Source: a virus. Taken from it: a DNA stretch of 64,000 nucleotides. Position 1 is the stretch's first letter, and every line of letters starts with the position of its first letter. Positions 1 through 64,000 of the stretch are shown here, one piece after another. The notes beneath the pieces are model-generated. The model ran no database searches, had not been told where the DNA came from, and saw only the letters and a program-made list of their open reading frames with translations. Both the position numbers and the translations under genes were made by a program. The stretch is from the IMG/VR virus record IMGVR_UViG_3300029554_000001; one strand, 5' to 3'.

Positions 1-171
1 CACATCAGATTTAATATTACTACTAATCAAGTTACTACTTCCGTTTATAGTGACCTGACTTAATCCATCGTAACTTGAATCAGGCTTTATATATTGTGTA
101 CTTGAGGATGGTGTAATAGTTTTAGACTATAACTGAGGACTTCCACCAATTGTTTTTACCTAAATAGACAC
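1..171 (-). CDS. tail-fibre/receptor-binding-like protein, N-terminal part (continues past window start)
   Basis: Minus-strand frame is open from GTG 171-169 to the window edge if TAG (plus-strand CTA at 127-129 and 160-162) is sense. Product reads VSIQVKTIGGSPQLQSKTITPSSSTQYIKPDSSYDGLSQVTINGS..., paralogous to the next gene. No ATG and no clear SD. The motif resembles tail-fibre repeats from memory only. Confidence 0.4.
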
Positions 172-208
172 ATCTTGGGCGTTAAAATGCTTCTTTTATA
201 TTTTAAAA

Positions 209-832
209 TTAAATTATTTTAAATAAATAGCAATCTGTAAGAGTGTAAGTATTCCAAACGAAAGCTCTAAAATAAGAGCCAAGCGCCCACAATCTGTATT
301 GAATTGTCATGCCAGTAGAAGAAATAGCGGTTATTTTATTTTCATCGTCATGAGCAAAACCCCAAATTGGGTCAACAATATTGAAATCGCCTGTGGAGGG
401 AGTATATTCTCCTAAATAAAACCGATAATAATTTTGTGTATTTGGCATAGATAATTTAGTAGTATTATTAATATTATTATATTTAAAATAATATTGGTAA
501 AAAATCTAAAATCTACTTGAGGTACTTTCAGAAGAATATCCCAATAAAAATTGGAGTAAATAATTTCTATTCTCCCAATTTTGGTTCTAATAAAAAGAAA
601 CGGACAAAGTAGACAATGCGGTATTTCCAGATGCTTGTTCTACTTTTAAAGTGGTTGGAGATTTCACAAATAAATTTTCATATGTTATAGAATTTGTATA
701 AGCAGAAACAATAACGTTACTTAATCCATCATATCCAGAATCAGCCGTAATGGTCTAGCTATATGTCTAAGGAGATACGGTTTTACTTTGTAATTTGGGA
801 GAACTGCCTGTAGAAAGACATTGTATGCTCAA
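209..832 (-). CDS. tail-fibre/receptor-binding-like protein (paralog of 1-171)
   Basis: Continuous 207-codon minus-strand frame from TTG 832-830 to TAA 211-209, with 4 in-frame TAG (506-508, 587-589, 755-757, 767-769). N-terminus LSIQCLSTGSSPKLQSKTVSPQTYSQTITADSGYDGLSNVIV matches the gene at 1-171. The ORF track shows only its last 79 aa. Confidence 0.5.
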
Positions 833-966
833 TTATTTGGCATTTGGAAGCAACATGCTTTTTGAGAATTGTTTTGAGAACCTAAATTAAAAAAATTTAG
901 ATTTTCAAAAGACCGCTCAAATACGCCCACTTTACTTAAGTAAAGCTGTTGCGTTAGCATCGAAAA

Positions 967-1484: not shown

Positions 1485-1511
1485 GAGTAAAAATTAAAAG
1501 GAGAAAAAAGA

Positions 1512-2555
1512 ATGAAATTATTAAAATGTCTTTTTACATAGAATAGATGTTATAAAAATGGGGTGAGAATTACTCCAAAAGGGATTATGGTTCATAGTAC
1601 TGGCTGTAACAATCCTAATTTGAAAAGATATGTGCAACCCTCTATTAATGATGCTAATTATAAAACACTGATTTCATAGCTTGGTAAGAATAATGGTGGT
1701 ACAGCTTGGAATAATTCTAATGCAAATGTATGTGTACATGCGTTTATTGGTAAACTTGCTAATGGCGAAATTGCTACTGTTCAAACTTTGCCTTGGAATT
1801 ATAAAGGATGGCATTGTGGTAAGGGAAATAAAGGCAGTCGGAATTCTTCTCATATAAGCTTTGAGATTTGCGAGGACGCGCTGACAGATGCTACTTATTT
1901 TAATAAAGTATATAAAGAGGCTGTTGAGTTCGCAGCTTATCTTTGCCAGCTTTACAATTTCGACCCATTAAAAGACGGAGTAATTATTGGACATTATGAA
2001 GGACACCAAAGAGGTATCGCTTCTAATCATGCCGACCCTCGTAATTGGTTTCCTCGTTTTGGCAAGAGTATGGACATTTTTAGACAAGATGTTGCTGCTA
2101 AGATGGGTAAAAAGGTAGCTCCTACTACCCACACTAATACTGAAACTACTGTGTCTTATTCTGGTATTGTTACCGCTTCTGTTTTGAGAATTCGTAAAGG
2201 TCCTTCTGTTTCTTCTTCTATTGCTGGAACTCTTAAAAAGGGAACGGGGGTCTCTATTATTCTTGAAGATAATGGTTGGGGTAAGTTGGCTGATGGTAGT
2301 GGTTGGGTAAGTTTAACTTATATTAAAAAGAATTCCATTCCAACTAGCACATTTAAAAGTTACCGAGGTAAAATTACAGCATCTTCTGGTGTTAATATAA
2401 GAACTGGTGCTGGTACTAACTACAGTAAAAATGGAGCTTTAACTTATAATTCTGTCGTAACTATTGTTAACGAGAAAAAAGTTTCTGGTATAACTTGGGG
2501 TAAGTTAGCCGATGGTAGAGGTTGGATTAGCCTTGCTTATTTAAAAAAGATTTAA
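1512..2555 (+). CDS. endolysin: N-acetylmuramoyl-L-alanine amidase (amidase_2/PGRP-like) with two C-terminal SH3 domains
   Basis: AAAGGAG SD. ATG 1512 is in frame with ORF 1788-2555 through TAG at 1539-1541 (codon 10) and 1677-1679. Amidase-type motifs GIMVHSTG, WHCGKGN, SFEICED, GHYEGHQRGIASNHADP. Two repeats of the GWGKLADG.GW(V/I)SL.Y SH3 type. Confidence 0.85.
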
Positions 2556-2612: not shown

Positions 2613-3320
2613 TCAATCTTCTTCATCAAGCTTAAGAAGTCTATCTTTATATTCTTTTTCAATGCGTTCGCGTTCTAACTTCTCTGCTTTGCGCTGATTT
2701 TTCTCTACAATACTGGGTCTAAAATACCCTCTTTTATCACAAAAACGTTTCATTGTAGAACGATTAACATGAAAAAGTTTTGCTACATCTGCGTAACAGT
2801 TGTCTTGTTCAACAATCAATGCCTTAATGGTCTCTTCGTATTGAGTTAACTTTGTACTTTCTCCTAAAGAACCTTTCGGTCTACCAAGCTTTACTCCACT
2901 TGCTTTTCTCATCGCAAGTGCTTCCTTGGTTCTCTGACTAATAAGATTACGTTCAATTTCAGCAGAAAGTCCAAAAGCAAATGCTAAGACTTTGCTCTGA
3001 ATATCATCGCCTAATACAAATCCATCTTTGATTGTTCTTACTTGACAGCCTTTTTCCATACACAAAGAAAGAATGTCCATAATCATATAAAGACTTCTAC
3101 CAAGACGAGAAATCTCAGAGCAAATAATGATATCTCCACTTTGTACCTTTTTAAGAAGTTTTCCTAACTTACGCTTTTCGGGATTCTTTGTGCCAGAAAT
3201 CGTTTCTTCAATCCAGCCATCAATTTTCATGCCGTGCTTTTCACAATATTGGTTGATTTCAAAACGCTGGTTCTCAACAGTCTGCTGGTCAGTACTTACT
3301 CGAATGTAACCAAAAGTCAT
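2613..3320 (-). CDS. small serine recombinase (resolvase/invertase family)
   Basis: 235-aa ORF. N-terminal catalytic motif GYIRVSTDQQ, then SRLGR and a C-terminal HTH region. No in-frame TAG; stops at TGA. Confidence 0.9.
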   Translation of the reverse strand: MTFGYIRVSTDQQTVENQRFEINQYCEKHGMKIDGWIEETISGTKNPEKRKLGKLLKKVQSGDIIICSEISRLGRSLYMIMDILSLCMEKGCQVRTIKDGFVLGDDIQSKVLAFAFGLSAEIERNLISQRTKEALAMRKASGVKLGRPKGSLGESTKLTQYEETIKALIVEQDNCYADVAKLFHVNRSTMKRFCDKRGYFRPSIVEKNQRKAEKLERERIEKEYKDRLLKLDEED

Positions 3321-3540: not shown

Positions 3541-3996
3541 ATGGTCTATAAAATAATCGGTGATTTCAATACCGATAATTTTGAAAATATGCTTTCTAAA
3601 ATTGGAAAGTATTATAAATTTATCTATCAAGATGATAACCTCTATCTTGCTTTGGCTCAATATAAATTTAGAGATGAAGCTTATGCAACTTTAAAAAAAT
3701 CTTTAAAACCAACTCGTAATTTTATTATCAGAGAAGTCAATGAGAAAAATATTATGAATGAAAATGATTTTGTTGTTGAATGGTGTAGAGACAATTTAGT
3801 TGCAATAGAAAAACAAAGATACGAAATAGAAAAGCAACAGAAATTGAGAGATACTATGAAAGTTCTCGATAATTTCGAACATATTTTAGCTGAACAAGAA
3901 AAAGCTAAAAAGTCTGTTAAGACTACAGATATTAATAAGAAGGGAGGAAATAATATTGGATAGTCCAAAAAAAAGAGGAAGACCCAAAAAGGTTGA
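3541..3996 (+). CDS. hypothetical protein
   Basis: AAGGAG SD. 140-aa ORF to TAG 3961-3963. If TAG is sense it runs to TGA 3994-3996, overlapping the portal start. Confidence 0.6.
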
Positions 3997-5146: not shown

Positions 5147-6465
5147 TAAGAATTTATATGAATTATAAACGAATAGCTAACGTTCACAGTAATGTGTTCG
5201 AAAAAGCGACAAATTGAATTGCTGGGAAATCCTAAAGTTGATTCAACTACAACGTAATTATGAAATATGAATAAGCGTGAATGTTGCGAAAGCAGAAAAA
5301 ATGAATCAAATATTTACATGGTTAAATCCTAAATAAATATAAATGGGTAATCAGCCGCTAAGTTCTGAAAAAGAAAAAGTTCAACGACTATCTCTGTTAA
5401 AGAGAGTAGAACCAAGTGGTTCGAAGTGGTTTGCCCCTTTTAATTAAGGGTGAAGATATAGTCTGTGCTTTATAGAAATATAAAGAAGTTCATAAGAGAA
5501 CTGCTTAAGTGTAACGAACTTAAGTGACCAATGTTTATTAATAAATTATATTATCAAAAGACATAAAATTTTTTAAAGAAAGGAGGGATAGAATGATTCT
5601 TCACGAAGAAGTGGATATTAATATAAATAACAGAAATATTACTTATTATAAGAATAAAGGATATGATTGTAAATCTGGAGATACATTGAAAGTAAAAGAA
5701 AAAGATATCCTTCCAACAAGCCCTTTAAAAGAAGAAAGAAAATGCGATGTTTGTGGACAAAACTTCATAAGAAGAAGAGATAATAATATTGAATCTTTTA
5801 ATAGATTTGGGAAAGATGTTTGTCCTCATTGTTTTAAAACTAATAAAAATATTAAAGATATAGTTCAACAAAAGAGAGAAAAAACTTTTATAAACAACTA
5901 TGGAGTAAATAATCCTATGTTTGTTCCAGAGTTTGTTGATAAAATTGGAGATACCTTAGAAGAAAAATATGGGGCAAGGAATCCATCTCAAATAGAAGAG
6001 TTTAAAATTAAACAAGAAGAATCTATGTTGGAAAAATATGGTGCTCGTAAAGCTTTGCAAGTAAAGCAGTTTCAAGAAAAATTTATAAAAACCATAAGTG
6101 AGAATTATTCTGTGAAGACCTCTTCTCAATAGGTTGCTTGTTTTAATATGTTAAAAGAGCGTGGATATAATGTTGAATTAAATTATCCTTATTCTACTTG
6201 TTCTTTAGATATTTTAATTATTATGCCAGATGGGACAAAAATTGACTTTGAATATGATGGAAGTCATTGGCATGATGATGAATAGAAAAAAAGAGATAGA
6301 AAACGTGACGAGTTTTTAAAAGGACAGGGTTTTAAAATAATTAGAATGGAATCTAAAAGAAGTATTCCCTCTTGGGAACAAATTGAAGATGAGATAAATT
6401 ATTTAATGGAAAAACCAGAAAGAAAATTTGCTCATTTATGTATTGATAATATAAACAATTGATAG
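5147..6465 (+). mobile_element. group I intron A (portal gene) carrying an endonuclease ORF
   Basis: P1: exon TTAGT (5142-5146) pairs with GCTAA (5176-5180), with U.G at the splice site. P2 hairpin with GTAA loop at 5181-5200. Conserved core blocks shared with introns B and C: TTGCTGGGAAATCCTAAAG at 5219, GGTAATCAGCCGCTAAG, P7 GACTAT 5386-5391 / ATAGTC 5458-5463. A stop lies right after the 5' splice site. The intron ends in G 6465, leaving exon 2 in frame; the 3' junction could instead be G 6471. Confidence 0.7.
5593..6462 (+). CDS. intron-encoded homing endonuclease, PD-(D/E)xK / EDxHD-like
   Basis: AAAGGAGGG SD. 289 aa with TAG at 6130 and 6283. Repeated EKYGA.NP-type modules, then LDILI..IDFEYDGSHWHDD..RD..L...GFKIIR (Vsr/EDxHD-like core). 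Paralog of the ORF in intron B. Confidence 0.65.
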
Positions 6466-8634: not shown

Positions 8635-10548
8635 TTGGATAAAAAAGTTCTGAAATTTGAACTTTCTCCGCAAAGTTTGAAAATTAAGAATGTGTTAAAA
8701 AATGACTTTATTGCTATCGACGTTTACGCGATTTCTGATGTCTACCCTAATAGAAATAATAGCTATTTCCCTGTGTCTGCTATGCAAGACGCTAAACCTA
8801 CCTTTTATAATAAACCCGCTCTTGGTGCTTTTGATACTACTCATGATGACTTTAAAGCTCATGAAATGGAATATAGATGGGATAATGAGTTACAACAAGA
8901 TTACTTTGACTTTACTAATGGTAAATGTGAAGTCCCACTTGGCGTAATTCGTGGCGAAGATTTGGTTGAAATTGTCGAACATGACGGTCAAACTTGGGTA
9001 CATTTTACTTGCGTTCTTTGGGCTAAATATGCTTATAAACAAGTTAAAAGATTGCTTAAGGATACTAAAAAGAAAATTTCTGTAGAAATAGAAGTCCTTG
9101 AAAGTCATATAGATGAAAATAAAGTCGAAGTAATAGATAGATTCATTTTTGATGGATTTACTATTCTTGGTTCTGCTGTTACTGAAGCTATCCCTAATGC
9201 ACATTTAACCATTCTTGATAAAATTAATGACGCTGTTTATCAGAAACAGGAAAAATGCTTATCTTTCGCTTATAAAGAGTTGGAAGATAATAACAATAAA
9301 GATAAAAATTCTGGCTCTGATACAGATAATAAAAATGAGGATTTCGATTCCATTATTCCTGATAACGGAATTGTTAATGAAAAAGTGGACGAAATCACGA
9401 TGGATAATGAACAAAGAGGGGAGGAACCAAAAACAATGACCTATGAAGAGAAAAGACAACTTCTCGAATCTTTTCTGAATAGCGGTCTTGATGAGAATGC
9501 TTCTCATTACAGTGTCACGGAAATTAACGACAATGTTGTTTGCTTTAGCCTTGATGATGAAAATTTTAAAGCTACTTATAGCATCAACGAAGAAAATGTC
9601 GCTAATGTTGATATGGACGCTAAAGAAAAGATTGTACTCTCTAAGGATGAAAATCCTGAAGATGAGAGTGGTAAAGAGACTGAATCCAAGGAATGTGAAT
9701 CTGAAGACGGCAAGTGCGAAGTCTGCGGTAACAACCCTTGCACTTGTGCGCATGAAGATGACGATGGTAATAAGGATGACGGTCATAAAGAGAATGAGTC
9801 TGAAGATGACAAAAATGATGATGACCACGACCATGATGATGATAATGATGATAACGACGATGATGATGGCAAAAAGGAAACCGAGGCTGAGGATAACGAT
9901 GGTGAAAAGAAAATCGAAAATTGCGAAGACCCCGCTCAGTTTGCCGCTACTGATGTAACTGTCGATGAATCTCATGCTGACCATGGACAGATTGAAGGTG
10001 AAGAGCTTGGTTCTCCTAAAGTTGATACTGATATCCTCAAAGAACATGATGATGGCAGTATTTTAGTCGGCCAACCTTCTGGTGAAAGTAATGTTATTCA
10101 GGATACCCACTATGCTGTCGGTGATGAACAACTTACTGCTGATGAACTTTATGAGAGATTCAATACTCTTAATACCTCTTTCGCTGAACTGACTGAAAAG
10201 TATAACGCTCTTAATGCTCAGTTTAACGCAAAGAAAAATGCCGAACTTTATGCTTTGGCTTGTTCTTTGGTTGATTCTGAAGAAGATTTGACTGAGGAAA
10301 ATGCTACTAATATTAAGGCATTTATGAAAGAAAATTGTGATAACAGTACTTATGCTTCCGATGAGGAACTTAATGAGGCTGTTGACCATAAAATTGCAGA
10401 TGCTCTTTATGCTCAGAAGAAACTTAGTAGAAAAGCTAAGGAGAAAGAGTTTTCTGCTGATATCGTTAAGGATAAACCTGTTGTTACTGAAGTGAACGAC
10501 AGCGCAAATAACCTTAAAAATGCAATGAAAAATCTTAATAAGATTTAA
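8635..10548 (+). CDS. acidic scaffold-like protein (possible protease-scaffold fusion)
   Basis: AAAGGAGG SD before TTG 8635. 637 aa. Globular N-terminal ~200 aa, an extreme D/E/N tract (about 9700-9900) and a C-terminal coiled coil. Lies between the portal and capsid genes. The protease call is not supported by clear catalytic motifs. Confidence 0.5.
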   Translation: MDKKVLKFELSPQSLKIKNVLKNDFIAIDVYAISDVYPNRNNSYFPVSAMQDAKPTFYNKPALGAFDTTHDDFKAHEMEYRWDNELQQDYFDFTNGKCEVPLGVIRGEDLVEIVEHDGQTWVHFTCVLWAKYAYKQVKRLLKDTKKKISVEIEVLESHIDENKVEVIDRFIFDGFTILGSAVTEAIPNAHLTILDKINDAVYQKQEKCLSFAYKELEDNNNKDKNSGSDTDNKNEDFDSIIPDNGIVNEKVDEITMDNEQRGEEPKTMTYEEKRQLLESFLNSGLDENASHYSVTEINDNVVCFSLDDENFKATYSINEENVANVDMDAKEKIVLSKDENPEDESGKETESKECESEDGKCEVCGNNPCTCAHEDDDGNKDDGHKENESEDDKNDDDHDHDDDNDDNDDDDGKKETEAEDNDGEKKIENCEDPAQFAATDVTVDESHADHGQIEGEELGSPKVDTDILKEHDDGSILVGQPSGESNVIQDTHYAVGDEQLTADELYERFNTLNTSFAELTEKYNALNAQFNAKKNAELYALACSLVDSEEDLTEENATNIKAFMKENCDNSTYASDEELNEAVDHKIADALYAQKKLSRKAKEKEFSADIVKDKPVVTEVNDSANNLKNAMKNLNKI

Positions 10549-11208: not shown

Positions 11209-11704
11209 ATGAAACAAATTTTTAGTTATAACAAATTCAACGAAGATGTCGCTGATGGTCTCGTTGAAACTTGCTATTCTTTGGCTCAGAAGTCCATTGA
11301 GGGTAAGAACAACACCCCTGAGTATATTGAAGCTAATAAGACCTTTAACCAAGAGTTTATGAAGTATTGTGTTGAGAACGCTGGCATGAAGTGGAGCGGT
11401 CTCGATATGATTAAGAATCCTATGGTCTACAAGAAGAGTAACTTCCTTGAGACTTTTGATACCATTCTTGCTGGTGCTATCACTCCTGTTGTTCCTACTG
11501 TTGCTGCGTCTGGTTATGAACAGCTTTATGATGTCACTCAGGTTGGTTTCGGTGATGTTGCTAAGTATGAAGTCGATAGCAATGAGCTCTTCATTGTGAA
11601 TAGCCTTGCTGAAGGCATTGCTCGTGGTGGTGTTCAGACTGCTTCTAACACTGAGTATACTATTTCTGCTAAGAGAGAGCAGATTTCTCTCTATGTTGAC
11701 TGGT
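11209..11704 (+). CDS. major capsid protein, exon 1
   Basis: AAGGAGG SD. Biased codon usage. Exon ends in phase 1 at U 11704 (P1 model). Spliced product is 370 aa. The capsid call rests on position, size and expression-type codon bias. Confidence 0.6.
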
Positions 11705-13151
11705 TAAATATAAGTACGTTATAAATAGCTAGGGCGTATAGTAATATGCGTAAAAATATTTCCATTTAATTGCTGGAATACCGTAAAGACAATCAAACTA
11801 CAACGCAAAATTGAAATAGATTTAATCGTGATAGTTGCGAAAGCAGAAAAAATTGATTGTATGATATAAGGTTAAACCCTAAGTATCTTAAAAATTGGTA
11901 ATCAGCAGCCAAGCTTCGAAAAGAAGAAGGTTCAACGACTATCCTCGTAAGAGGAGTAGGAATATAGTCAATAAATTATTCCGAAATGGTGGACATCCTA
12001 TAGGGATGAAGATATAGTCTAAGCTTGTGTGAAAATACAAGAATCCGAAAGGGTTAGAGCGAATTGACGATTCGAAAAATTTAGTGTTTAAATAAAATAA
12101 AAAGGAGGTTTGTATGTTAAAAGAAAATCAATTGATTGAAATTCCTTGGACACAAACCGCTTAGAAATATTTCAATGAAAAAGGTTATAGTCTTTTTAAA
12201 GGGAAGACTATTCATGTTAAACCAGAAGAATTACCAGAAGGAAGCCATAGAGAAGTTGTGGCTGTTTGTGATTTTTGTGGAAAAGAAATAACGGTTCAAT
12301 ACAAAAAATATTTAAAAAGAATAGAAAAGCATGATGGTAAATATTGTTGTAGAGATTGTTGGGGAAAGAATAAAGAGCTAATAGCTCAAAGAAATAATAA
12401 GTCTATAAAAACAAATTTAGAAAAATATGGAGTAGATAATCCTGCTAAAAGTGAAGAAATTAAGGATAAATCTAAAAAGACTTTAAATGAAAAATATGGG
12501 GTGGATAATCCTCGGTAGATTAAGGAAGGTCAAGAAAAAGCAAAACAGACTTGTTTGAAAAAATATGGAGTTGAATATCCAATTTTAACAAAAGAAGCAA
12601 AAGAAAAAGCTGTTAAAACTTGTTTGGAAAAATATGGAGATGTAAATCCTTTTTCGAATAAAGAAGTAAGAGCTAAAGCTATCAACACTTGCAGGGAAAA
12701 ATACGGTTGTGATTATCCCGTACAAAATCCAGAAGTGCGAAAAAGAATGCAAGAAGCATTAGCTAATAAAAAAGAATTAATTCCATGTTCTTCACAACAG
12801 TTAAAAATTTATGAAATGCTTTTAGATGAATATAAAGTAGAGTTGAACTACCCTTTAAGTCAACTCAATTTAGATGTAGCTATTTTTATTGGAGATATTA
12901 AAATAGATTTGGAATATGATGGTTGGTATTGGCATCAAGACCAGTAGAAAGATATAAAAAGAGATAGAGTAGTTCAAAAAATGGGTTACAAAGTCTTAAG
13001 AATAAAAGGAGACCATTCTATTCCAGAAAAACAAGAAATAATTGACAAGATAAATTGGCTATTAAAAGATAATAATTATTATGCTGAAATAATTTTAAAA
13101 GATTATGAATAGCAAAAAGCTAAAAACACTAAATAACTCTTAATATAACTG
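11705..13151 (+). mobile_element. group I intron B (major capsid gene) carrying an endonuclease ORF
   Basis: P1: CTGGT (11700-11704) pairs with GCTAG (11728-11732), with U.G at the splice site. P2 CGTATA-GTAA-TATGCG at 11735-11750. Core blocks homologous to introns A and C (TTGCTGGAATACCGTAAAG at 11770). Terminal G 13151. Splicing joins T + AC into TAC and restores the frame (VDW-Y-HVASG). Confidence 0.7.
12114..13136 (+). CDS. intron-encoded homing endonuclease, PD-(D/E)xK / EDxHD-like
   Basis: AAAGGAGG SD. ORFs 12258 and 12555 share one frame with ATG 12114; 4 in-frame TAG. Five or more EKYG(V/D).NP modules, then LDVAIF..IDLEYDGWYWHQD..RD....MGYKVLRI. Confidence 0.65.
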
Positions 13152-13768
13152 ACCACGTGGCATCGGGTCGCCAAGATTGGGGTAAGCTTCTCCAGAAGAT
13201 TGGTGCTTCTTTTGCCGCTTATATTCAGGCTCGTCTTGCTAAGGTAATGGCTTCTATTATTACCAATAACACTGACGTTGCCACTAACAATCAAGATGGT
13301 ATCGCTGGCTATATGGCTAACGGTCTTACTGATGAAAACTGGCTCAAAGTTGCACGTTTGGTAAAACTTGCTAATGGCGGTGCTGATGTTTATGCTCTTG
13401 GTACTTCTATTGCTCTCGCTTCTGTCCTTCCTGACAGTGCAAAGGGTTTCCGTTATGGTGAGGATAGCGCTATTGTTAGAGATGGCTTCCTGCCTGATTA
13501 CAAGAATGTTCCTATGATTGAACTGGGTAACGCTCTTGTTCCTAACACCATCAATGGTGAGCCTGAAGTCGTTCTTCCTGATGATATTATTTACATGCTT
13601 CCTCTTGGTATGAATAAGCCTATCAAGGTTGTCATGGAAGGTAATACCGTTTCTGTTGAGAAGGACCCCTTGTTTGCTGCTGACCATACTTACGGTTTCA
13701 CCGTTGACATGCGTATGGGTATGGACGCTATTGTAGGTAGCAAGATTGGTGCTATTACTCTTAACTAA
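13152..13768 (+). CDS. major capsid protein, exon 2
   Basis: Frame of ORF 13157-13768. No TAG. The codon-biased region resumes right after the intron's terminal G. Confidence 0.6.
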
Positions 13769-23282: not shown

Positions 23283-23296
23283 TTAAATAATTGTAT

Positions 23297-23318
23297 AAAA
23301 AGCTTCACAAAGCTTTTT
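23297..23318 (+). terminator. rho-independent terminator
   Basis: AAAAAGCTT pairs with AAGCTTTTT around a 4-nt loop. Confidence 0.65.
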
Positions 23319-23330
23319 AAATAAACCTAT

Positions 23331-23795: not shown

Positions 23796-23818
23796 ATTAA
23801 GACTTGGGGGTTTTAGTT

Positions 23819-30438: not shown

Positions 30439-30452
30439 GGAGGAGATTGAAA

Positions 30453-52917: not shown

Positions 52918-53937
52918 ATGGGTATTGATATTTTTAGCATTAAGCCTAATGTGGTCACTCGTGACCTTAGTGGTAAGAGTTTTCTCATTTATGGAGAAAG
53001 AAAGAGCGGCAAAACTACAAATGCTTGTAAATTTCCCAAGCCTATTTTGCTTGGTTTCGAAAAAGGCTATGGTTTCTTGGATGGCATTATTGCACAGCCA
53101 ATTAACACTTGGAAAGAAGCTCTTGAAGTAAAGAAGCAGTTACTTAAAGATGCAGATGCGGCTGAAAAAGAAAATAGAGAAACAATCTTTAAAACGGTAA
53201 TTGTTGATACTATTGATATTGCCTACGACCTTTGTGAGAAGTATATCGTAGACAAGGAAGGTGTAGATTATCTTGATGAGACTGAAAAGATGCGTGGCTA
53301 TCGTGCTTTGTCTCGTGAGTATGATAAGTTTTTCCAAGAGATTGTTAAGGCTGGTTATACTTTGATTTGTATTTCTCATGCCACCACTAAGCAGATTAAG
53401 GAAAACGGTGAGAAATATGATAAGACTATTCCTACTGTACCCGACCGTGGATTCCTTGTTGTTTCTCGTCTTGTTGACGTAACTGGTTACGCTTCTTATG
53501 AAACTGATGAACAGGGTAATGTTCATTCCATGCTTACTATGAGAGGCAATAAGCATCTTGAAGCTGGTTCTCGTAGTCCTTATATGTCTGAATGTATTCC
53601 ATTTACTTATGAAGCATTGCGTGATGATATGGCAAAGGCTATTGATAAACAAAAGGCTAATGGTGCGACAGTTGTTGATAATGAGGTTAATCTCTTTAAG
53701 GATAACGAAGTTACCGAAGATGAAAAGAAGAGCGTTGATGAGCTTATTGCTGAAATCGGTAGCTATGTAAAGGCTATTCATAATACTGGTAGTACAGAAT
53801 ATAAGAAGATTATTGCAGAGTATCTTGGAAAGGGTAAGAGTGTAAAAGATTGCGATGAATCTCAATTGGATATGCTTTTACTTATTCTCGATGATTTGAA
53901 GGATTACTGTACTGAAAATAATATTACAGTAGAATAA
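52918..53937 (+). CDS. Sak4-like / RecA-family AAA ATPase (recombination mediator)
   Basis: AAAGGAG SD. Walker A GERKSGKT and Walker B-like VIVDTID. 339 aa, no TAG. Confidence 0.6.
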   Translation: MGIDIFSIKPNVVTRDLSGKSFLIYGERKSGKTTNACKFPKPILLGFEKGYGFLDGIIAQPINTWKEALEVKKQLLKDADAAEKENRETIFKTVIVDTIDIAYDLCEKYIVDKEGVDYLDETEKMRGYRALSREYDKFFQEIVKAGYTLICISHATTKQIKENGEKYDKTIPTVPDRGFLVVSRLVDVTGYASYETDEQGNVHSMLTMRGNKHLEAGSRSPYMSECIPFTYEALRDDMAKAIDKQKANGATVVDNEVNLFKDNEVTEDEKKSVDELIAEIGSYVKAIHNTGSTEYKKIIAEYLGKGKSVKDCDESQLDMLLLILDDLKDYCTENNITVE

Positions 53938-54711: not shown

Positions 54712-56526
54712 TTGGCGGATTATAGAGATTATCAAAGCAAATCTGCAATTAAAGAAGTTCTTGGCTGTTTACTGTAGAATCCAACTTTATTAACAAGTAA
54801 TAAAATCGACAAAAAAGATTTTGTTGAAGCTTTCCATCAACTTTTATTTGTAGCGATAAACAATCTTTTTTCTCAGGGTGCGGTAAAACTTGACCAATAT
54901 ATTATTGATGACTACTTAAAGAATAATCTTCAATCTCTGTATAATATTTATACAAGGAATAATGGCAATCTTTATGTTGAAAAGGCTAAAGAATTAGCTA
55001 CACCAGAAAACTTTAATACTAATTATCAGGAGATGAAAAAGTTTTCTCTCCTTCGTGCTTATCTCAAGTCAGGTATCGAAGTTGATGAAATTTACAATCC
55101 TGATGAAGAAGACCCTGAAATTGCAGATGAACAAAGATATCAATTTAGTCAAATGACTATTGATGATATACTTAATTATTTTAGGCAAAAAGTATCTAAT
55201 ATTACTCAAGAATACAGCCCCAAAGTTGGGCGTGATAGTGTTAAAGCTGGTAGTGATGAAGCTCGAAAGCAAAAAGAAGAATGGAAGAAAACTCCCGCTT
55301 ATGGTTTATCTTACGCAAGTAATTATATGACTACCGTAACAAGAGGTATGCAACCACGAAGATTTACTGTTTGTTCTGCACGGACAGGTTTAGGAAAAAC
55401 GAGAGTTACTATTGCCAATCTTTGTCATTCTTTTACCCCTAAATATTGGGATTCTAATGTTGGAGAATTCGTAAAAAATCCAAATGGTACTCAAAATGCT
55501 GCTCTTTATATTGGAACAGAAATGGAGCTTATTACAGAGATTGAGCCTATTTTATGGGCCTATATTGCAGATGTTCCTCAGCAACATATTATGACTGGTA
55601 AGTATGTTGGGGATGAAGAAGAAAGAGTTGATGAAGCTATTAGAATTCTTCATGAAGAGGGACATATTTATCTTGAATATGTACCTGACTATGATATCGG
55701 AACTTTAGAGAATGTTATTGAACAACACGTTCTTCAACATGGAATAACTCATGTTTTTTTTGATTATATTCATGTAACAACTGATTTGATTAGTGAGTTC
55801 CAAGCTAATGCCAAAGCAAGAATGCAAATTCGTGAAGACCAAGTTCTTGCAAATTTAAGTTTGAAATTAAAAGACCTTACTCGAAAATACGATATTTGCA
55901 TTGATACTTGGACACAGGTTACGGGGGATTTTAAGAACGAGCAAAATCGTGACCAAACAATTGTGCGTGGTGCTAAAGCCATCATTGATAAAGCTGACCA
56001 TGGAGCAATTTTGTCAGAGGTTACGAAGAAAGAAGAAAAATATTTAGAGAAAATTTTGAGAAGTAAATTCTTAAAATATAAGCCTAATAGATGTTTATCA
56101 GTTTATAAAAATCGTGGTGGAGAATACAATAAAGTTAAAATTTGGTTGTATATTGAATATTCTACAATGCGAGTTCATGATTTGTTTTGTACTGATTATG
56201 ACTATGAACTTTTAGATATTCCTCAAACATTTACTCGTGTTGAAGAAGACCAAAAGGTTCAATTCTTTAACAATAAAGACTTCTTACGAAGTCAAATGAT
56301 TAACGATGCAGTTGATATTGCTCAAACTGCCAAGGAAGAAGGAACTTTTGATGTTTTTGAAGATACGGAAGAAGTAACAAAAAAAATTAAAGAAGCTCTT
56401 GAAAATGAAGAGGACCCATTCTTAGAATCTCCTGAAAACAGGAAATTTAGAATGGTAGAAGATGATGAAGATGATGAAGAAGAAAAGAAAGCTTTATCAA
56501 AAGAGGAAGAAGAAATAGATTATTAA
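54712..56526 (+). CDS. dnaB: DnaB-like replicative helicase
   Basis: GGGAGG SD 8 nt before TTG 54712. In frame with ORF 55033 through TAG 54775-54777. Walker A-like ARTGLGKT and a RecA-fold C-terminal domain with an acidic tail. Confidence 0.7.
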
Positions 56527-56538: not shown

Positions 56539-57735
56539 ATGATAGATAAAGATGAACTGTTGAAGTTGGTAACAGAAAATGTGGTTATTAACATCATGGA
56601 AGAAAATGGTTCTCCTTTATATTCAACTTCTACAGATGGAAGAACACAACAAAAATGTCTTTGGTTTAAAACAATTTGTCATGGTGGAGATAGTCATAAA
56701 CTATGTTTCTTTACTGAAAGCAAAGATTTTTTTTGTTATACAAATTGTGGACGAATGAATTTTTTTGAGTTTATTAAAAGAATTCGTAATGCTAAAGAAG
56801 GAGAATTTTATAGCAAGGTAATTGTTTATATTGCTAAAAAAGTTGGTAAATCATTATCTCGAAGTCGTATTGGTTTTGGAAACGATATTTCACCAGAGTT
56901 GCGTGGACAATTATCTGAAATGGTAAAACAATCAGAAGATATTGAAAGAAGACAACAATTTTATGAAGCTAAAATTACGAAGTTTTATGATGACTATAAA
57001 TGTCTTTTTAATTATTTTGATTGTAATACTTTTTATAAAGGTTGGATTGATGAAGGAATTAGTATTTCTTCTATGGAAAAATTTGGTATTGAATGGTATG
57101 AATATCAAAAATATATAATTATTCCTCATTATAATATAGATGGTCATTTAGTTGGTATTAGACGAAGAAGTTTACAACCAGAAGATTCTAAAAGAAAATA
57201 TATGCCTTTGTTTATGACTGGTAAAGAATTTGACCATCCTCTTGGATTGAATTTATATGGTCTTTACGAGAATAAAGAAAATATAAAAAGATTTAAGAAA
57301 GCGGTTATAGTTGAGGGTGAGAAAAGTGTTTTAAAAGCAGACACTTATTTTAATGGTAAAAGTTGCGTAGTGGCAACTTGTGGCTTTAATGTTTCAGATT
57401 GGCAAATTAGGGCTTTAGAAAAACTTAGAGTAAATACAGTTTATTTAGGTTTTGATAAAGACTTTGATGATAAATATGAAGAAGTATATAAAGCTGACAA
57501 ATTGTTATATGATAACTATTTAAGGTATAATGAACGATTAAGGACTTTAGCTCAGAGACTTGCTTTAAGCTTTAATGTCTTTCTTATTAAGGACACCAAA
57601 GGATTGTTAGATATCAAAGATTCACCTCTTGATAAAGGAAAAGATGTTTACAATCAATTAATAAAATTAGCAAAACCTGTTTATTCTTACGGGGAAAGGC
57701 AAAGTTCTACGAGTATATTTTTAAGAGGTAATTAA
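56539..57735 (+). CDS. dnaG: DnaG-type primase (zinc finger + TOPRIM)
   Basis: GAGG SD 6 nt before ATG 56539. CHC2-like finger (C..H....C-23 aa-C..C), TOPRIM VIVEGEKS and GFDKD. No TAG. Confidence 0.7.
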   Translation: MIDKDELLKLVTENVVINIMEENGSPLYSTSTDGRTQQKCLWFKTICHGGDSHKLCFFTESKDFFCYTNCGRMNFFEFIKRIRNAKEGEFYSKVIVYIAKKVGKSLSRSRIGFGNDISPELRGQLSEMVKQSEDIERRQQFYEAKITKFYDDYKCLFNYFDCNTFYKGWIDEGISISSMEKFGIEWYEYQKYIIIPHYNIDGHLVGIRRRSLQPEDSKRKYMPLFMTGKEFDHPLGLNLYGLYENKENIKRFKKAVIVEGEKSVLKADTYFNGKSCVVATCGFNVSDWQIRALEKLRVNTVYLGFDKDFDDKYEEVYKADKLLYDNYLRYNERLRTLAQRLALSFNVFLIKDTKGLLDIKDSPLDKGKDVYNQLIKLAKPVYSYGERQSSTSIFLRGN

Positions 57736-59774
57736 TGGAAAAATTACTATGGGAGACAAAGTTTTAGAATAACTTTGATGATGAATATGATTTTCTTGAA
57801 ACTATTTTAAAAAGCTATGATATTTAGGATGTAAAGAGTTTTCTTCATCCTGTAAAAAACAAGGTCGTTAATGACCCCTTCCAAATGAAAAACATGGATA
57901 AAGCTGTATAGATTTTTCATGATAATATTAATACTGATAAGAAAATTGCAATTAAAGTGGACCCAGATACGGATGGCTTGACAAGTAGTGTTTTAATGAG
58001 TAAAATTATTAAATATTTTAATCCAGAGGCAAAGATAGAATATATTTTTAGTTTTAATAAAGAGCACGGACTAACCTATAAAGCATTAAGCGAATATTCA
58101 AAAGATGAAATCGGTTTAATTATTATTCCAGATGCTTCAATGATTTGCAAAGATGCAATTCAAATTATTAAAAATTACAATTGTCCTATCATTGTATTAG
58201 ACCACCACTTAGTTGAAATTGAATATTTAGACACTAATACAGGTAAATGGATTTCAAAAAATGAAGCAGACGAGATTAAAGAAAAAGAGTCTGACAGAAT
58301 TAAAGAGGATAGTTATGTTAATTATTGTGTAGCTGTAAATGATACTGATGGACACTATCCCAATCCTACTTTATCTGGTGTTGGTGTAGTTCGCAAATTT
58401 GGCGAAGCTTATTGTGAAAAGTATCACTGTAGTGATAGTTGGCTTGATGAATATCTTGATTTAGTTTCTCTTGGTATTATTGCAGATAGTATGGATTTAA
58501 GAGATTTAGAAACAAGATGGTATGTACTTGAGGGTTTAAAGGTTGAAAATCAAAAGAATGATTTTCTTAATGAACTTCAAGAAAGAATGGCTGATGAAAT
58601 TCATTTTGGTAGAACTATTACAAATGTCGGTTGGGTACTTGCTCCAAGAATTAATGGTGTAGTACGTTATGGTACAGAAAAAGAGCAAAGAGATTTATTT
58701 AGAGCTATGGTTGGGGAACAAGAAACTGTTATTTATCAACCGAGAAGAAAAAAAGCTACCGACCCGAAACCTCTTCCAGAAGAACACACACTTCAGTGGG
58801 AGATGGCGAGAGTAGCTAACAATGTAAAGTCTCGTCAAGATACAGCCGTTCGTAAATTTATGGAGCAAATTGTTGATAAAATTGACAAACAGGGACTAGA
58901 TAAAAATACTATTTTATTTGTCGATTGTACCGACATAGTTGATAAAAAATCTGTTACTGGATTAGTAGCTAATAAGATTGCTTCGAAATATTTGCGTCCA
59001 GTGGTGCTTCTTAAGGAAAGGAGTGCCTCAGAATTCGGTGGCTCCTGTCGCGGATATGATAAAGGAAATATTAAAAACTTGAAGGAGTTTTTAGAGCAAA
59101 CTGGACTTATAAGTTGTGCTGGACATGAAAATGCTGCTGGTGTATTTCTTAAAAAGAAAAATGTTGATGAAGTAATTGAAAAGTGTAACGAAATGCTTCC
59201 TCTTGACCAACTTAAAACTATTTATCCAGTTGATTGGGAAATTCCCGCTAATGAAATGCAAATAAGATTTGTAAAAGAAGTAGCTGAAAATTATGAAGTG
59301 TGGGGTAATACTGTTCCTACTCCTACTTTTGCAATTACAAATCTTCATATAAATGCCAGTCAAATTAATGGCTATGGCGAAACTAAGAGTTTTATTAGAT
59401 TTCAGCATAACGGTATTACTTATATTAAAAAGTATTGTCCTGCTACAGAATTTGATATGATGACTCTTAAGGATAGACATACCTTTGGCGTTAACAAAAA
59501 GAATTTGGTAATGAATTTAATTTGCCAATTCCAGTTAGAGTCTTGGGAAGATAAGATTTATCCAGAAGTTAAAATTTTATATTATGATGTTATGGAGGAT
59601 AAAACAAATGAGACTTCTGATTTAAAAAGTAAGACCAAATCTGACGCTATTCTTAATTCTAAAACGACTTCCTTAAATGCAAAATCTACTACAGATTTTG
59701 ATTGGGGTGAAATTGAAAAGCCTAAGAAGAAAAGAGTAATGTTAGATAAAGATTTAGAAGATTTGGATTTTTAA
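57735..59774 (+). CDS. DHH-family phosphoesterase, RecJ-like exonuclease candidate
   Basis: ATG overlaps the primase stop (TAATG). In frame with ORF 57957 through 3 TAG. Motifs VDPDTDG, IIPDAS, VLDHH and GHENAAG. Confidence 0.65.
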
Positions 59775-59883: not shown

Positions 59884-61506
59884 ATGGTTTTTTATAAGCC
59901 TGTTACAAATGAATAGGCATCAAAAATAGCAAAAGAATTAAAATTCTTTTCTACGCATAACCATACAGAAGTAAGCAATTTCAGATTGCGAGATTGCATA
60001 ATAAAAATACCCGACCTTATTAATCGTTCTATTGAATTAGGATATAATGGAGTGTGTTGTACAGACCACGAAGCTTTATCTGCTCATGTGCGATTTATTA
60101 GGCGTTACAAAGAAATTAAAGAAAATAAAGAAAAATATGACAAATTAAAAGTAGACAAAACAGAAGAAGAAATAGAATTAGAACTAAATAAAGATGAAAA
60201 TAAATCAATTAAAAAGAATTTAAAATATTATAAGAATTTTGATGGATTTAAAATTGGTTTAGGAAATGAAATTTATTTAGTAGATAGACCTATCGAAGAT
60301 GAAAAAATTAGCAAGTTTTTTCACTTTATTTTAATTGCAAAAGATAAAAAGGGTTATGAACAAATAAAAAGAATTTCTTCTGATAGCGCTTGGAAAAATT
60401 GGTATCGTTCTGGAATAATGGAAAGAGTTCCGACTTATAAAGATGAACTTGAGTCTATTATTGGGGATGAAAAAGGTCATATTATAGCACAATCTGCGTG
60501 TTTAGGTTCAGAATTGGATAATTTAATTCTTGAATATTTAAATACGAACGATAAAAGTATTAAACAAAAAATTGACGCTTTTATTAAATGGTGTATAAAA
60601 ATATTCGGAAAAGAAAATTTTTATTTGGAAATTCAACCTTGTGTAATTAAACAAGACAAAGATGGAAACAATTTACCACATGAACAAGCAATGGTAAATC
60701 AATTTATGTTTGTTTTAAGTAAAGCTTATGGATTGAAAGTCATTTGTAGTACTGATAGCCATTATTTAACAAAAAATGATGCAAAAATTCATGAGGCATA
60801 TTTAAAAGCAGATGACAATGAAAAATCTCGTAACAGAGAAGTGGCTAGTTTTTATGAAACGACTTATATGTTTTCTATAAGTGAACTAGTAGAAACGCTG
60901 TCATATCATTTAACAATTGACCAAATTAAAGAAGCTTTAATAAATACTCAACGTATTTATGATAGTATTGAAGTCTTTGATTTATATCACTCCACTATTG
61001 TTCCTACTGATAAAAAGATTCCTCCATTTAAGGTAAAGCATATTTTTAAAGATTGGTATGATAAATATGAATATTTAAAAAAGTATGCCGAATCTGAGGA
61101 TAAACAAGACCAGTATTTGCTTTATTTGGTAGAACAAGGGTTTGAAAAGAAAAAACAATGGGGAGATTCCTCTTATCATTTTGCCACTTATGATGAAAAT
61201 GGTAAAATTATAGAAGAACATGATAAAATAGTAACTCAAGAAGAAAAAATTGCTCGTATTAATGAAGAGTTTAGTAGCTTTTGGCAAATTTCTGAGCGTT
61301 TAAATCAAAAATTATCTGCATATTATGTACTTGTTAGAGGATTGGTACATGAAGTTATGTGGAAAGTTTCTTTTGTTGGTGTTGCGCGTGGTTCAGCAGG
61401 GGGTAGTTATATTTGCTATCTTTCTGAAATTACTCAAATTAATCCTCTAAAATATGACTTGCCTTTCTGGAGACATAGTTCTCCTTTAAGACCAGAGTTG
61501 CCAGAT
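59884..61506 (+). CDS. dnaE: DNA polymerase III alpha-type replicase (PHP domain), exon 1
   Basis: ATG 59884 is in frame with ORF 59986 through TAG 59914-59916. PHP motif HNHTEVSNFRLRD..CCTDHE. Exon ends at ..FWRHSSPLRPELPD, the first half of the conserved PD-x-D-x-D palm motif. Confidence 0.75.
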
Positions 61507-62209
61507 TAAATTATTCTAACATTTATTTAAATATTTTAATGAAAGGGGGAATTATGAGCGTAGAAATAATAAAAGAAAAAGGAAAATATATTTTTAATCA
61601 AGAAGCTATTGATTGTGTTGTTAAAAAGTATCAAGAACATAAAGGGTCTGTTACAATATAGAAAGAATTAAAAACAGAGTATAATATAGATGTTAGTATT
61701 CATGGTATTTATTTAATTTTACATAATAGAGTAGAAATTAGAGATGACCGTGAATAGGCTTTAAAATATACTTGCGATGATAATTTCTTTAAAGAAATAG
61801 ATACAGAAGAAAAAGCTTATTGGTTATAAATAGGTTTTAAGATTAGTAACTTTACTTTATAAAGACGCTACTATTTATTTGGATAGAAAATATGAAAAAT
61901 ATTTAAAAATGTTAGAAATTAGTCGAGAACAGCAGTAATGTTGTTTGTTAAGTCCTGTAAACCTAAATTGCAATAGGGTGTGCAGAAATGTGCTAACGGT
62001 GAAAGCCTACAGTTAAAATAACCATGGTAATACCGTGCCAAGCTTATATGTAAATATATGAAGGTGTAACGACTAGCCCAAAGGGGCGTAGGGTGGAGAA
62101 GCTGCCACTCGAAAGACGGATACCCTAATAGTTCGGCTAAGGGTAAAAAGATAGTCTACTCCGACTCTGAATAGAGTGTTAAAGTATTAGGAAACTAACG
62201 GTAGTAAGG
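61507..62209 (+). mobile_element. group I intron E (polymerase gene) with a decayed endonuclease ORF
   Basis: A stop (TAA) follows exon 1 immediately. P2 AACAGCA-GTAA-TGTTGTT at 61928-61945. Core blocks are related to introns A-C (GGTAATACCGTGCCAAG; P7 GACTAG / GATAGTC). Terminal G 62209 gives PELPD|IDVDS in frame. P1 is only about 3 bp in this model, so the junctions are the least certain of the five. Confidence 0.55.
61554..61938 (+). pseudogene. LAGLIDADG homing-endonuclease remnant
   Basis: GGGGG SD and ATG 61554. The 91-codon N-terminal piece ends at ..FFKEIDTEEKAYWL-stop, exactly where the first LAGLIDADG motif should start (compare HYFDKIDSEDKAYFLGLLFADG at 18695-19501). A C-terminal tail, LLYKDATIYLDRKYEKYLKMLEI, survives in another frame (61849-61938). 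Confidence 0.55.
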
Positions 62210-64000
62210 ATTGATGTAGATAGTGAGGCTTTAAAACGACCACTTATTTTCCAAAATATGCATGATTATTATGGAGATGAGAATGTTTTAAATACTCTTA
62301 CTTTAAAAACAGAGGGAACAAAATCTACAATTTTAGTGTGTGCTAAAGGGTTTGGAATAAATAATGATGATGCACAACATTTGGCAGATTTGGTTCCTTT
62401 TGAAAGAGGTTCAAACTGGTCATTAAAAGATTGTTTTTACGGGAATGAAGAAAATGGTAGAATGCCTGTAAAAGAATTTATTAATGAAGTAAATAAGTAC
62501 GAAGGGTTGAAAGATACTCTTTTTAAGATTGAAGGACTTATTTGTGGTAGGTCTATTCATGCTTCGGCATCTTATATTTTTGATGCTGGATATATTGTTC
62601 AAAATAGCAAAATGAGAGCGCCGAATGGTACAACTATCACTGCCTATAATATGGAAGATTCAGATTATATGGGTGGTTTGAAGATAGACACTTTGACTAT
62701 TGAAATGCTAGATAAGTTACATACAGCAATAGATTTGCTAATTGAAGCAAAAATAATTGAAGATAAAGGAAGTTATAAAGCTAATTATGATACTTATCTT
62801 CATCCTGATGTGCTTGATTATAATGATTATAAAATGTGGAATTTGTTAGACAAAAACCAAATTTTAGATGCATTTCAATTTGATAGTGCAATGGGACAAC
62901 AAGTTATTACAAAAACTCAACCTCGTTCTATGTTAGAACTTTCTACAGCTAATAGCTTAATGAGACTTATGGCGCAAGAAGGTGCAACAGAAGCCCCTAT
63001 GGATACTTATCGTCGTTATAAAAATAATATTCAATTATGGTATAACGAAATGAAAGAAAATAAATTATCCAACCATGAGCAAGAAATTATGAAGAAACAT
63101 TTAGGTAAACTTTATGGGGTTGCTGATACTCAGGAAAGTATTATGGAAATGAGTATGGACCCTGAAATAAGCGGGTTTGATGTAGTTCTTGCGAATAAGC
63201 TTAGAAAATCGGTGGCCAAAAAAAAGAAAGATTTGATTGCTGCTGTTCATGAAAAATTTTACAAAAAGGGCGCAGAATTAGGCACTTCAAAAGAACTGCT
63301 TAATTATGTTTGGGATGTACAAATTAAAAGACAGCTCGGATATTCTTTTTCAAAAAACCATTGTATGCCCTATACAGCCATTTGTCTTCAGTGTATGAAC
63401 ATTGTACAAAAATATGGGGCGTTATATTGGAATTGCGCTTGTTTAATTGTTAATAGTGGAAGTACAGATGAAGAAAATGTTGATAACAATAGTGGCGTTA
63501 ACTACGGTAGAATTGCTAAAGCTATGGGCAATATGATTAATGCTGGCATTAAAATTTCTTTACCTGATATTAATCGTGCTCGTTTTGGTTTTTACCCTGA
63601 CAAAGACAGCAATGAAATTATTTATGGCTTAAGACCTATTCAGGGATTAGGAGGGAAAATAGCTAAAGCAATCGTAGATAACAGACCTTATGCCTCAGTT
63701 GAAGATTTTTATTCTAAAATGCAAGAATTTAAAGAGTCTGCAAAAGAGAATAAGTTTGGCGATACGGCTATGATTTCTCTTATCAAAGCGCGGTGTTTTG
63801 ATAATCTTGAGAAAAAAGATAGAAGAGCAATTATGGAAGGCTTTATTAGGATTATTTCAAGTCCTGTTAAGTCTCTTAGTATGCCAAATATAGAAGATTT
63901 GGCAAATCTTGATTTATTAACTGAAAATCAAAAAAAGTTTGAATTAAGATTATATAGATTTAGAAACTATGTTTTCCAGAAAAAATTCTTTTATAAACAA
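62210..64000 (+). CDS. dnaE: DNA polymerase III alpha-type replicase, exon 2 (runs off the window)
   Basis: Open frame from 62210 to the window end with no TAG. Pol III alpha motifs: IDVD, SIHASA, GGLKIDTLTI, LDAFQFDS. Confidence 0.75.
   Translation, partial: MDVDSEALKRPLIFQNMHDYYGDENVLNTLTLKTEGTKSTILVCAKGFGINNDDAQHLADLVPFERGSNWSLKDCFYGNEENGRMPVKEFINEVNKYEGLKDTLFKIEGLICGRSIHASASYIFDAGYIVQNSKMRAPNGTTITAYNMEDSDYMGGLKIDTLTIEMLDKLHTAIDLLIEAKIIEDKGSYKANYDTYLHPDVLDYNDYKMWNLLDKNQILDAFQFDSAMGQQVITKTQPRSMLELSTANSLMRLMAQEGATEAPMDTYRRYKNNIQLWYNEMKENKLSNHEQEIMKKHLGKLYGVADTQESIMEMSMDPEISGFDVVLANKLRKSVAKKKKDLIAAVHEKFYKKGAELGTSKELLNYVWDVQIKRQLGYSFSKNHCMPYTAICLQCMNIVQKYGALYWNCACLIVNSGSTDEENVDNNSGVNYGRIAKAMGNMINAGIKISLPDINRARFGFYPDKDSNEIIYGLRPIQGLGGKIAKAIVDNRPYASVEDFYSKMQEFKESAKENKFGDTAMISLIKARCFDNLEKKDRRAIMEGFIRIISSPVKSLSMPNIEDLANLDLLTENQKKFELRLYRFRNYVFQKKFFYKQ

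Follow-up and report, generated by a model that had tools for sequence, protein, structure and literature searches.

TAG as a sense codon, most likely for glutamine, in a widespread lineage of human-gut phages whose suppressor tRNA gene may in some members be split by an intron

When translated with the standard code, a 64,000-nucleotide stretch of viral DNA from the IMG/VR record IMGVR_UViG_3300029554_000001 (hereafter the window, by which we mean this whole stretch) has recognizable genes that are broken by TAG, and it thereby raises the questions of whether TAG is a sense codon in this phage, which amino acid it specifies, what decodes it and to what use the altered code is put. An original prediction, made from the letters of the window, had proposed that TAG is a sense codon throughout and had offered glutamine (Gln) as a merely inferred residue. 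Using open reading frame (ORF) statistics, domain searches, comparison with related contigs and tRNA gene searches along the lineage, we confirm that TAG is a sense codon here, with TAA and TGA as the sole terminators, and find that it most likely stands for Gln, as in translation table 15. We further consider it highly probable that the lineage as a whole reads TAG as Gln by means of its own tRNA with the anticodon CUA, tRNA(CUA), and may use this reading as a code switch. The window has a G+C content of 32.8%, carries nearly all of its long ORFs on the plus strand, and comprises lysis, head, tail and replication genes (the last including DnaB, a primase, a DHH/RecJ-like protein, DNA polymerase III alpha and a Sak4-like protein), two recombinases (one serine, one tyrosine) and several homing endonucleases.

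Taking TAA and TGA as the only stops we obtained 49 plus-strand genes, which together contain 125 in-frame TAG and not a single in-frame TAA or TGA; a minus-strand gene contributes four more TAG, close to the figure of about 130 that had been counted by hand. Forty-one of the plus-strand genes end at TAA, seven at TGA and none at TAG, while one leaves the window. TAG amounts to 0.66% of codons and is found in all kinds of genes. The frame from 30429 to 42038 runs for 3870 codons, of which 33 are TAG and none is TAA or TGA, and from the frequency of these two triplets in the +1 frame within genes (846 per 19083 codons) about 170 would be expected in such a length by chance. This giant frame had been described as eighteen fragments separated only by TAG: the frame itself stands, and the number of fragments depends on the length cut-off, there being 34 pieces when it is split at TAG, 21 of them of at least 60 amino acids (aa). 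With TAG as sense, ORFs of 100 aa or more cover 85.1% of the plus strand (47 ORFs), compared with 60.0% under code 11 (59 ORFs), the specific gain in coding density that the prediction had implied. By the same measure TGA as sense gives 60.6%; TAA as sense gives 68.8%, but raises the non-coding strand to 70% as well, and this gain is non-specific because both strands inflate alike. A cruder index, the summed ORF length with one stop removed, failed to separate recoded from standard loci. Of the 125 TAG, 12 have a Shine-Dalgarno-like motif at the next in-frame start, compared with a background of 17% and with 35 of the 49 real starts; moreover, TAG falls within the last 15 codons of six genes where 4.6 would be expected, that is, with no excess near gene ends. 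The TAG sites are thus not hidden gene boundaries.

The genes in which recognizable domains meet TAG are as follows:

1512-2555, plus strand: endolysin with an Amidase_2 and two SH3_3 domains; TAG at 1539 and 1677.
23804-25069, plus strand: free-standing GIY-YIG homing endonuclease with 7 TAG, absent from some strains (e.g. contig L002).
25066-25725, plus strand: ClpP-like prohead protease with 2 TAG, one at the N of the motif INSPGG.
27966-28946, plus strand: tyrosine recombinase with 3 TAG, one within Phage_integrase.
30447-42038, plus strand: giant tape-measure-like protein (3863 aa, 33 TAG), its PhageMin_Tail domain spanning 36705; called as a 3861-aa product in the ENA contig L002.
42114-43193, plus strand: GIY-YIG endonuclease with TAG inside the motif YIG-TAG-T (42168).
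54712-56526, plus strand: DnaB-like helicase with one TAG (54775), in the N-terminal domain.
57735-59774, plus strand: DHH/RecJ-like protein with 3 TAG.

Pfam domains run straight across the TAG positions in the amidase (Amidase_2 at aa 21-177, TAG at aa 56), in the two GIY-YIG domains (1-81 with TAG at 19, and 42-135 with TAG at 77), in the N-terminal domain of DnaB (10-72, TAG at 22), in the PhageMin_Tail domain of the tape-measure-like protein (1946-2166, TAG at 2087) and in the Phage_integrase domain of the tyrosine recombinase (132-311, TAG at 282). Likewise, alignments of the ClpP-like protein to PDB entries continue across the TAG at aa 87. Alignments that broke off at TAG had been named as the observation that would count against recoding, and they pass through it instead. 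All five TAG that the original prediction had singled out by position, in the amidase, tape-measure, GIY-YIG and DnaB genes, lie in frame, and the stop-start overlaps it had listed (ATGA at 25066-25069, and TAATG at 18693-18697, 27964-27968 and 57733-57737) are all present, as is the read-through it had claimed for ClpP and the tyrosine recombinase. The DHH protein does have its three in-frame TAG, but all of them are upstream of the DHH domain, so that the domain itself does not run through TAG. The label RecU given to 27430-27966 finds no support in Pfam or PDB.

To establish which residue TAG specifies we translated the window genes with X at each TAG and compared them by tblastn with more than 100 related loci from public contigs. 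The stop triplets of these relatives inside the alignments comprise 153 TAG, no TAA and no TGA. At the 53 TAG sites of the window where some relative has another codon, that codon specifies Gln at 27 and glutamate (Glu), the next most frequent residue, at nine. Conversely, among 85 sites with TAG in relatives but not in the window, the window residue is Gln at 46, Gln making up 3.6% of all residues; expressed as a rate, this is 75 per 1000 Gln positions, no other residue exceeding 6.3 per 1000. Lysine is found at 6 of these 85 sites, tyrosine at 2 and tryptophan at none. An empirical-profile log-likelihood places Gln ahead of Glu by 67 nats. Among near-identical strains the commonest exchange is that between TAG and CAG or CAA; the TAG at 1677, for instance, is CAG in other strains. 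Comparison with relatives thus lends the Gln assignment a backing that it had previously lacked.

Three TAG-free proteins of the window have exact copies on many human-gut metagenome contigs of 205-222 kb, and exact protein copies of the phage are indexed in 128 to 726 collection blocks of human gut assemblies. Two contigs from ENA, ERZ1309208 NODE_21 (216,084 bp) and ERZ1309173 NODE_10 (220,112 bp), are 100% identical to the window over the stretches read, and in one lineage contig from IMG/VR a single gene is divided between the two ends, which is what a circular or terminally redundant genome would give. The source is a widespread human-gut phage with a genome of about 205-220 kb. The sole clue to its host is one contig binned with an uncultured Clostridium metagenome-assembled genome, and the host is probably a Firmicute. 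A megablast search with 49 kb of the window against the phages in GenBank recovered no relatives, just matches of 57-139 nt. The nearest GenBank record, MT835469.1 (176 kb), shows 37% identity in one protein, has a standard-code ORF structure and lacks a tRNA(CUA); it is too distant to be informative on the residue at TAG, with 10 alignable TAG sites.

ARAGORN and Rfam, even at permissive thresholds, find no tRNA in the window, which also has no release-factor or class I synthetase motif, in line with the earlier remark that genes for a suppressor tRNA, for a Gln-tRNA synthetase and for a release factor are missing from it. The tRNA locus was reached by walking along lineage contigs from IMG/VR, whose identity to the window is 93-98%. 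In the reference contig of 220,795 bp an array of tRNA genes starts about 30 kb beyond the right end of the window; it has at least 17 genes, ARAGORN calling up to 17 per array locus. Its last gene, directly after tRNA-Arg(UCU) and about 44 kb past the end of the window, is a tRNA(CUA), which lies 130-200 nt upstream of a conserved gene for a 151-aa protein and is followed by a hairpin-and-T-run terminator. ARAGORN recovers this tRNA intact in 10 of 14 IMG/VR contigs of the lineage, and the other four, together with one Logan contig, have it as a split gene; intact or split, it is present at all 15 lineage contigs read at the site. The Rfam tRNA model additionally matches stretches of 122-138 nt that receive no ARAGORN call (3682-3803 and 9268-9400 in L155; 456-593, 2471-2592 and 8275-8407 in L166), which suggests that the array has more tRNA genes, with insertions of about 50-60 nt.

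All alleles of the suppressor share an unpaired 1:72, G73, G10, G2:C71 and the anticodon loop CUCUAAA/C. In E. coli an unpaired 1:72, G73, G10 and G2:C71 direct charging by glutaminyl-tRNA synthetase (GlnRS), and by analogy we infer that the phage suppressor would be charged with Gln. A sister group with contigs of 130-160 kb (77-78% identity in one protein) has a different tRNA(CUA) at another genomic position:

L059, 6705-6779: sister-group tRNA(CUA).
L061, 16937-17011: sister-group tRNA(CUA).
L095, 16209-16283: sister-group tRNA(CUA).
L097, 16253-16327: sister-group tRNA(CUA).

These tRNAs have a mismatched 1:72 (U1 opposite C72), G73 and an encoded CCA; at a comparable position L085 has a tRNA-Gln(UUG). 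The sister-group suppressor has no blastn match in the lineage of the window.

TAG is unevenly distributed among the genes (chi-square permutation p<0.0002). Hence the claim that TAG is a sense codon across the whole window holds as regards sense, and does not hold as regards uniform use, 16 of the 49 plus-strand genes having no TAG at all. As a share of Gln-type codons it reaches 15.4% in the window and 5.9% in the 33 kb downstream, where 25 of 38 genes are without TAG; the latter figure excludes two TAG-rich endonuclease ORFs, one of the GIY-YIG and one of the LAGLIDADG type. Rich in TAG are the homing endonucleases, the tape-measure gene described above and two further genes, and TAG-free are the primase and six others:

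17688-18695, plus strand: ORF of 335 aa, 7 TAG.
44951-48970, plus strand: tail-region protein of 1339 aa, 20 TAG, the highest density among the large genes.
2616-3320, minus strand: serine recombinase (Resolvase), no TAG.
8635-10548, plus strand: YonD-like protein of 637 aa, no TAG.
Up to 20938, plus strand: YomU-like tail-tube gene, no TAG.
21834-23282, plus strand: metallo-beta-lactamase/beta-CASP protein of 482 aa, no TAG.
50017-51258, plus strand: tail protein of 413 aa, no TAG.
52918-53937, plus strand: Sak4-like/AAA_24 protein, no TAG.

On the whole, structural, lysis and homing-endonuclease genes use TAG often, and many replication genes and other genes farther downstream use it seldom or never. 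This pattern fits the model of Borges et al., in which late genes are subject to a code switch. Applied to the present lineage, a phage-encoded amber-suppressor tRNA with the anticodon CUA would decode TAG as Gln; genes free of TAG could be translated by the unmodified machinery of the host, and TAG-rich late genes, along with the selfish endonucleases, would yield full-length products only after the suppressor had been made. The charging with Gln, the timing of expression and the competition with the release factor RF1 of the host are parts of this scheme that we infer. Within the first 30 codons of genes there are 20 TAG where 9.6 are expected (p=0.002); this excess could stem from start codons set too far upstream, or it could reflect a true bias, by which premature termination would be more complete ahead of the switch.

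Several observations weigh against this model or against its assignment of Gln. At codon 87 of the ClpP gene (25324-25326) TAG occupies the asparagine position of INSPGG, which is phenylalanine in a distant standard-code homologue, so that TAG here aligns with asparagine or phenylalanine and not with Gln. The assignment itself is drawn from comparison rather than from protein, and the tRNA(CUA) is known from sister contigs and not from the window's own contig. The suppressor shows 64-70% identity to many other tRNAs of the phage and is given no isotype by similarity, and one of its alleles has a long variable arm like that of class II tRNAs. Many Firmicutes, the group to which the host probably belongs, lack GlnRS. 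Finally, several genes of structural type (tube, 413-aa tail, YonD-like) are without TAG, and some replication genes contain it; because of this the early/late split is a tendency and not a rule.

Some of these observations would be accommodated if TAG were a sense codon for a residue other than Gln, be it Glu, lysine, tryptophan, tyrosine, leucine or pyrrolysine. This we regard as improbable. In its favor one may cite the lack of an isotype assignment by similarity and the long variable arm just mentioned, the occurrence of Glu, lysine and serine opposite TAG, the ARAGORN label 'Pyl' for the tRNA (though this is owed to the CUA anticodon alone) and a study of theta ribozymes according to which about 30% of phage tRNA(CUA) have a predicted non-Gln isotype (10.1101/2023.06.13.544163). 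Opposite TAG, however, Gln has a 12-fold enrichment relative to the residue that ranks second, and the likelihood comparison favors it by the above-stated 67 nats, while tryptophan is never and tyrosine scarcely ever found there; furthermore CAA, two mutations removed from TAG, is common among the strain variants, as expected if the exchange passes via CAG. Pyrrolysine decoding in particular would entail a pylT-type tRNA, pylS and pylBCD genes, and TAG at lysine-like positions in a few genes. Here TAG is frequent, spread over all kinds of genes and aligned with Gln, lysine appearing at few of the reciprocal sites, and the tRNAs are ordinary cloverleaves, which speaks against this decoding, although no search aimed at pyl genes was made.

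Alternatively, the host might supply the decoding, either through a reassigned TAG or through a natural suppressor, with the phage mirroring the code of its host. The limited information on the host leaves room for this, as does the result that about 127 kb of the lineage yielded neither a release-factor GGQ motif nor a class I synthetase motif (motif search only); a gene of either kind may lie in the other 85-95 kb or so. Yet all 15 lineage contigs read at the site encode a tRNA(CUA) of their own, the avoidance of TAG in many genes fits a host that terminates at TAG, and to our knowledge no bacterium has been reported in which TAG is read as Gln. We accordingly consider host-supplied decoding very unlikely. 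That TAG is still a stop, and the frames represent pseudogenes, misassemblies or rows of short genes, as gene calls made with the standard code on some public contigs (L001, L006) might be taken to imply, can be dismissed, given that every one of the 125 interruptions is a TAG, with no TAA or TGA among them, that TAG sites are retained across independent assemblies and crossed by domains, and that they are not followed by ribosome-binding sites. The reassignment of TAG is supported because ORF structure, domain alignments, relatives and the tRNA(CUA) of the lineage all speak for it.

Examination of the tRNA(CUA) gene beyond the window, in the five lineage contigs out of 15 that have it in split form, showed that it is interrupted in the anticodon loop by an insertion of 219 nt, a group I-like intron:

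L153, 8549-10000: split suppressor tRNA locus.
L155, 9578-9880: split suppressor tRNA locus.
L165 (=L139 19877-20190): split suppressor tRNA locus.
L166, 8586-8890: split suppressor tRNA locus.
L170, 8586-8890: split suppressor tRNA locus.

Removal of the insertion in silico restores a tRNA(cta) recognized by ARAGORN in all four contigs tested; the fifth (L170, from Logan) was read by eye. Every split copy has a 5' exon that ends in U and an insertion that ends in G, the point of insertion being after U35 or after U33. The form in L155 matches the Rfam family Intron_gpI with 34.9 bits (E=1.7e-7, in a permissive search of 341 nt), below the gathering score. The form in L139 has no Rfam match, and aligns to the first form with shared core blocks, where the changes in a P7-like helix look compensatory. 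A TAG-rich GIY-YIG ORF follows the tRNA in four of the five split contigs. In its anticodon-loop insertion, the U at the end of the 5' exon, the terminal G and the Intron_gpI match, the insertion resembles the group I intron of tRNA-Leu(UAA) from cyanobacteria and plastids (subgroup IC3). It differs from the latter in that the host gene is an amber suppressor, that it is inserted after U35 or U33 instead of U34, that its score is below the gathering threshold and that its splicing is a prediction. An invariant 19-mer of the intron, GGCTATGGTGACATAGAGT, occurs in 52 viral contigs of IMG/VR (L171-L222); where split exons can be found in these, they are tRNA-Leu(UAA)-like in many and tRNA(CUA) in a few, and the intron family thus seems to be widespread in phage tRNA genes.

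The suppressor tRNA is itself hypervariable, with at least seven alleles of 52-87% identity and compensatory changes in the anticodon stem (loci including L154 and L156-L164), whereas the 151-aa protein encoded beside it is 99-100% identical across contigs. Exchange driven by the endonuclease, or selection on the tRNA itself, is a possible source of this variability. Taken together, these features allow the tentative proposal, to which we give slightly less than an even chance, that in part of the population the code switch would depend on self-splicing, a mobile intron of group I, of the type found in tRNA-Leu(UAA), having entered a hypervariable suppressor. The intron-split gene is located beyond the window, whose own strain may or may not have it. 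Full-text literature searches returned no report of intron-split suppressor tRNAs in phages, and the arrangement may be new.

With regard to known phages, SPbeta of Bacillus and c-st of Clostridium use the standard code. The gut contigs of the present lineage have precomputed matches to the SPbeta-named Pfam families YonB, YonD_N, YomW, YomU_Tube and YorF, and the lineage shares with the SPbeta prophage a very long tape-measure-like protein; a distant tblastn match links it to c-st. Identity to both of these phages is low. The crAss-like phages, among which read-through of TAG or TGA occurs, are podovirus-like and infect Bacteroidetes. The lineage is like them in reading TAG as Gln, in a tendency to recode late genes, in its suppressor tRNAs and in the heavy load of group I introns seen in some of their groups (Yutin et al. 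2020/2021), and unlike them in its SPbeta-named families, its giant tape-measure protein and its probable Firmicute host. TAG is read as Gln in the proposed genus Phassvirus too.

Recoding of TAG as Gln in gut phages has already been described, and the present phage is another case. Code 15 was described in gut phages and validated by metaproteomics (10.1101/2021.08.26.457843; PMC9523058), a validation that covers two crAss-like phages only (Peters et al. 2022; PMC9523058). The TAG-recoded clades of Borges et al. 2021/2022 include 'Sapphire' of about 201 kb, with a TAG-recoded representative genome, and 'Jade' of about 210 kb (10.1101/2021.08.26.457843), and in the model of these authors early genes are readable in the code of the host and late genes and intron endonucleases need a suppressor. 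The lineage agrees with their clades in its gut origin, TAG in structural and lysis genes, a tRNA(CUA), replication genes that are variably recoded and intron endonucleases that are preferentially so; with Sapphire, Jade and Agate in particular, the agreement is one of genome size and code alone. It differs from the phages of Borges et al. in that a code-change module with RF2 or a synthetase was not seen by the motif search of the roughly 127 kb read.

The remaining features of the window include several further genes that are interrupted, by introns or by endonuclease ORFs:

209-832, minus strand: gene of 207 aa with 4 TAG; the same 207-aa product is called in the ENA contig L013.
3956-5149 and 6511-7176, plus strand: portal gene in two pieces with 4 and 2 TAG, matching positions 26-285 and 335-498 of phrog_2739.
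5593-6462, plus strand: homing-endonuclease ORF between the portal pieces, 2 TAG.
11710-12041, plus strand: group I intron (65 bits) splitting a YonB-like gene (11209-11724 and 13157-13768).
12114-13136, plus strand: endonuclease ORF (DUF7487/DUF559-type) after the YonB intron, 4 TAG.
18695-19501, plus strand: endonuclease ORF (phrog_4645), 3 TAG.
19556-19867, plus strand: group I intron RNA (58 bits) between that endonuclease ORF and the tube gene.
59884-61509 and 62258-64000, plus strand: DNA polymerase III alpha in two pieces with 1 and 0 TAG, interrupted at about 61.5-62.2 kb.

Other strains have intron-less YonB alleles (a YonB of 370 aa in L002), and around the 335-aa ORF L002 also has another gene layout, the distance from its YomW gene to its YomU gene being smaller by about 1.1 kb. 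Related strains (L008, L011 and L012) have a LAGLIDADG ORF inside the polymerase gene. Three other stretches also deserve mention. The non-coding one at 5214-5355, after the first portal piece, shares 79-82% identity with DNA that carries no annotation in a Staphylococcus phage and in Lactococcus phages (AM1, LW81 and relatives), and may represent an additional intron, of a kind missed by Rfam. About 62151-62214, before the second piece of the polymerase gene, 57-64 nt show 89-91% identity to sequences near or at the large-terminase genes of Twort-like Staphylococcus phages. Lastly, the 518 nt between the beta-CASP gene and the free-standing GIY-YIG ORF (23283-23800) are non-coding and richer in G+C; a match to the 'drum' RNA (23350-23446; 43.6 bits) is just above the gathering score, and the remaining stretch looks structured.

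On a practical level, several standard-code gene calls in public records fragment the tape-measure, portal, endolysin and other genes of this lineage, and translation table 15 mends them. The lineage would be one more case of a phage with a large genome and a probable Firmicute host whose late genes and selfish endonucleases wait on altered decoding. If the splitting of its suppressor by an intron is borne out and proves functional, stop-codon reassignment would gain a step gated by a ribozyme, and, since standard finders such as ARAGORN and the Rfam tRNA model both overlook the split gene, the splitting would help explain recoded phages that seemingly lack a suppressor tRNA. A split and fast-evolving suppressor tRNA would thus offer a testable lead on how a code switch of this kind is constructed.

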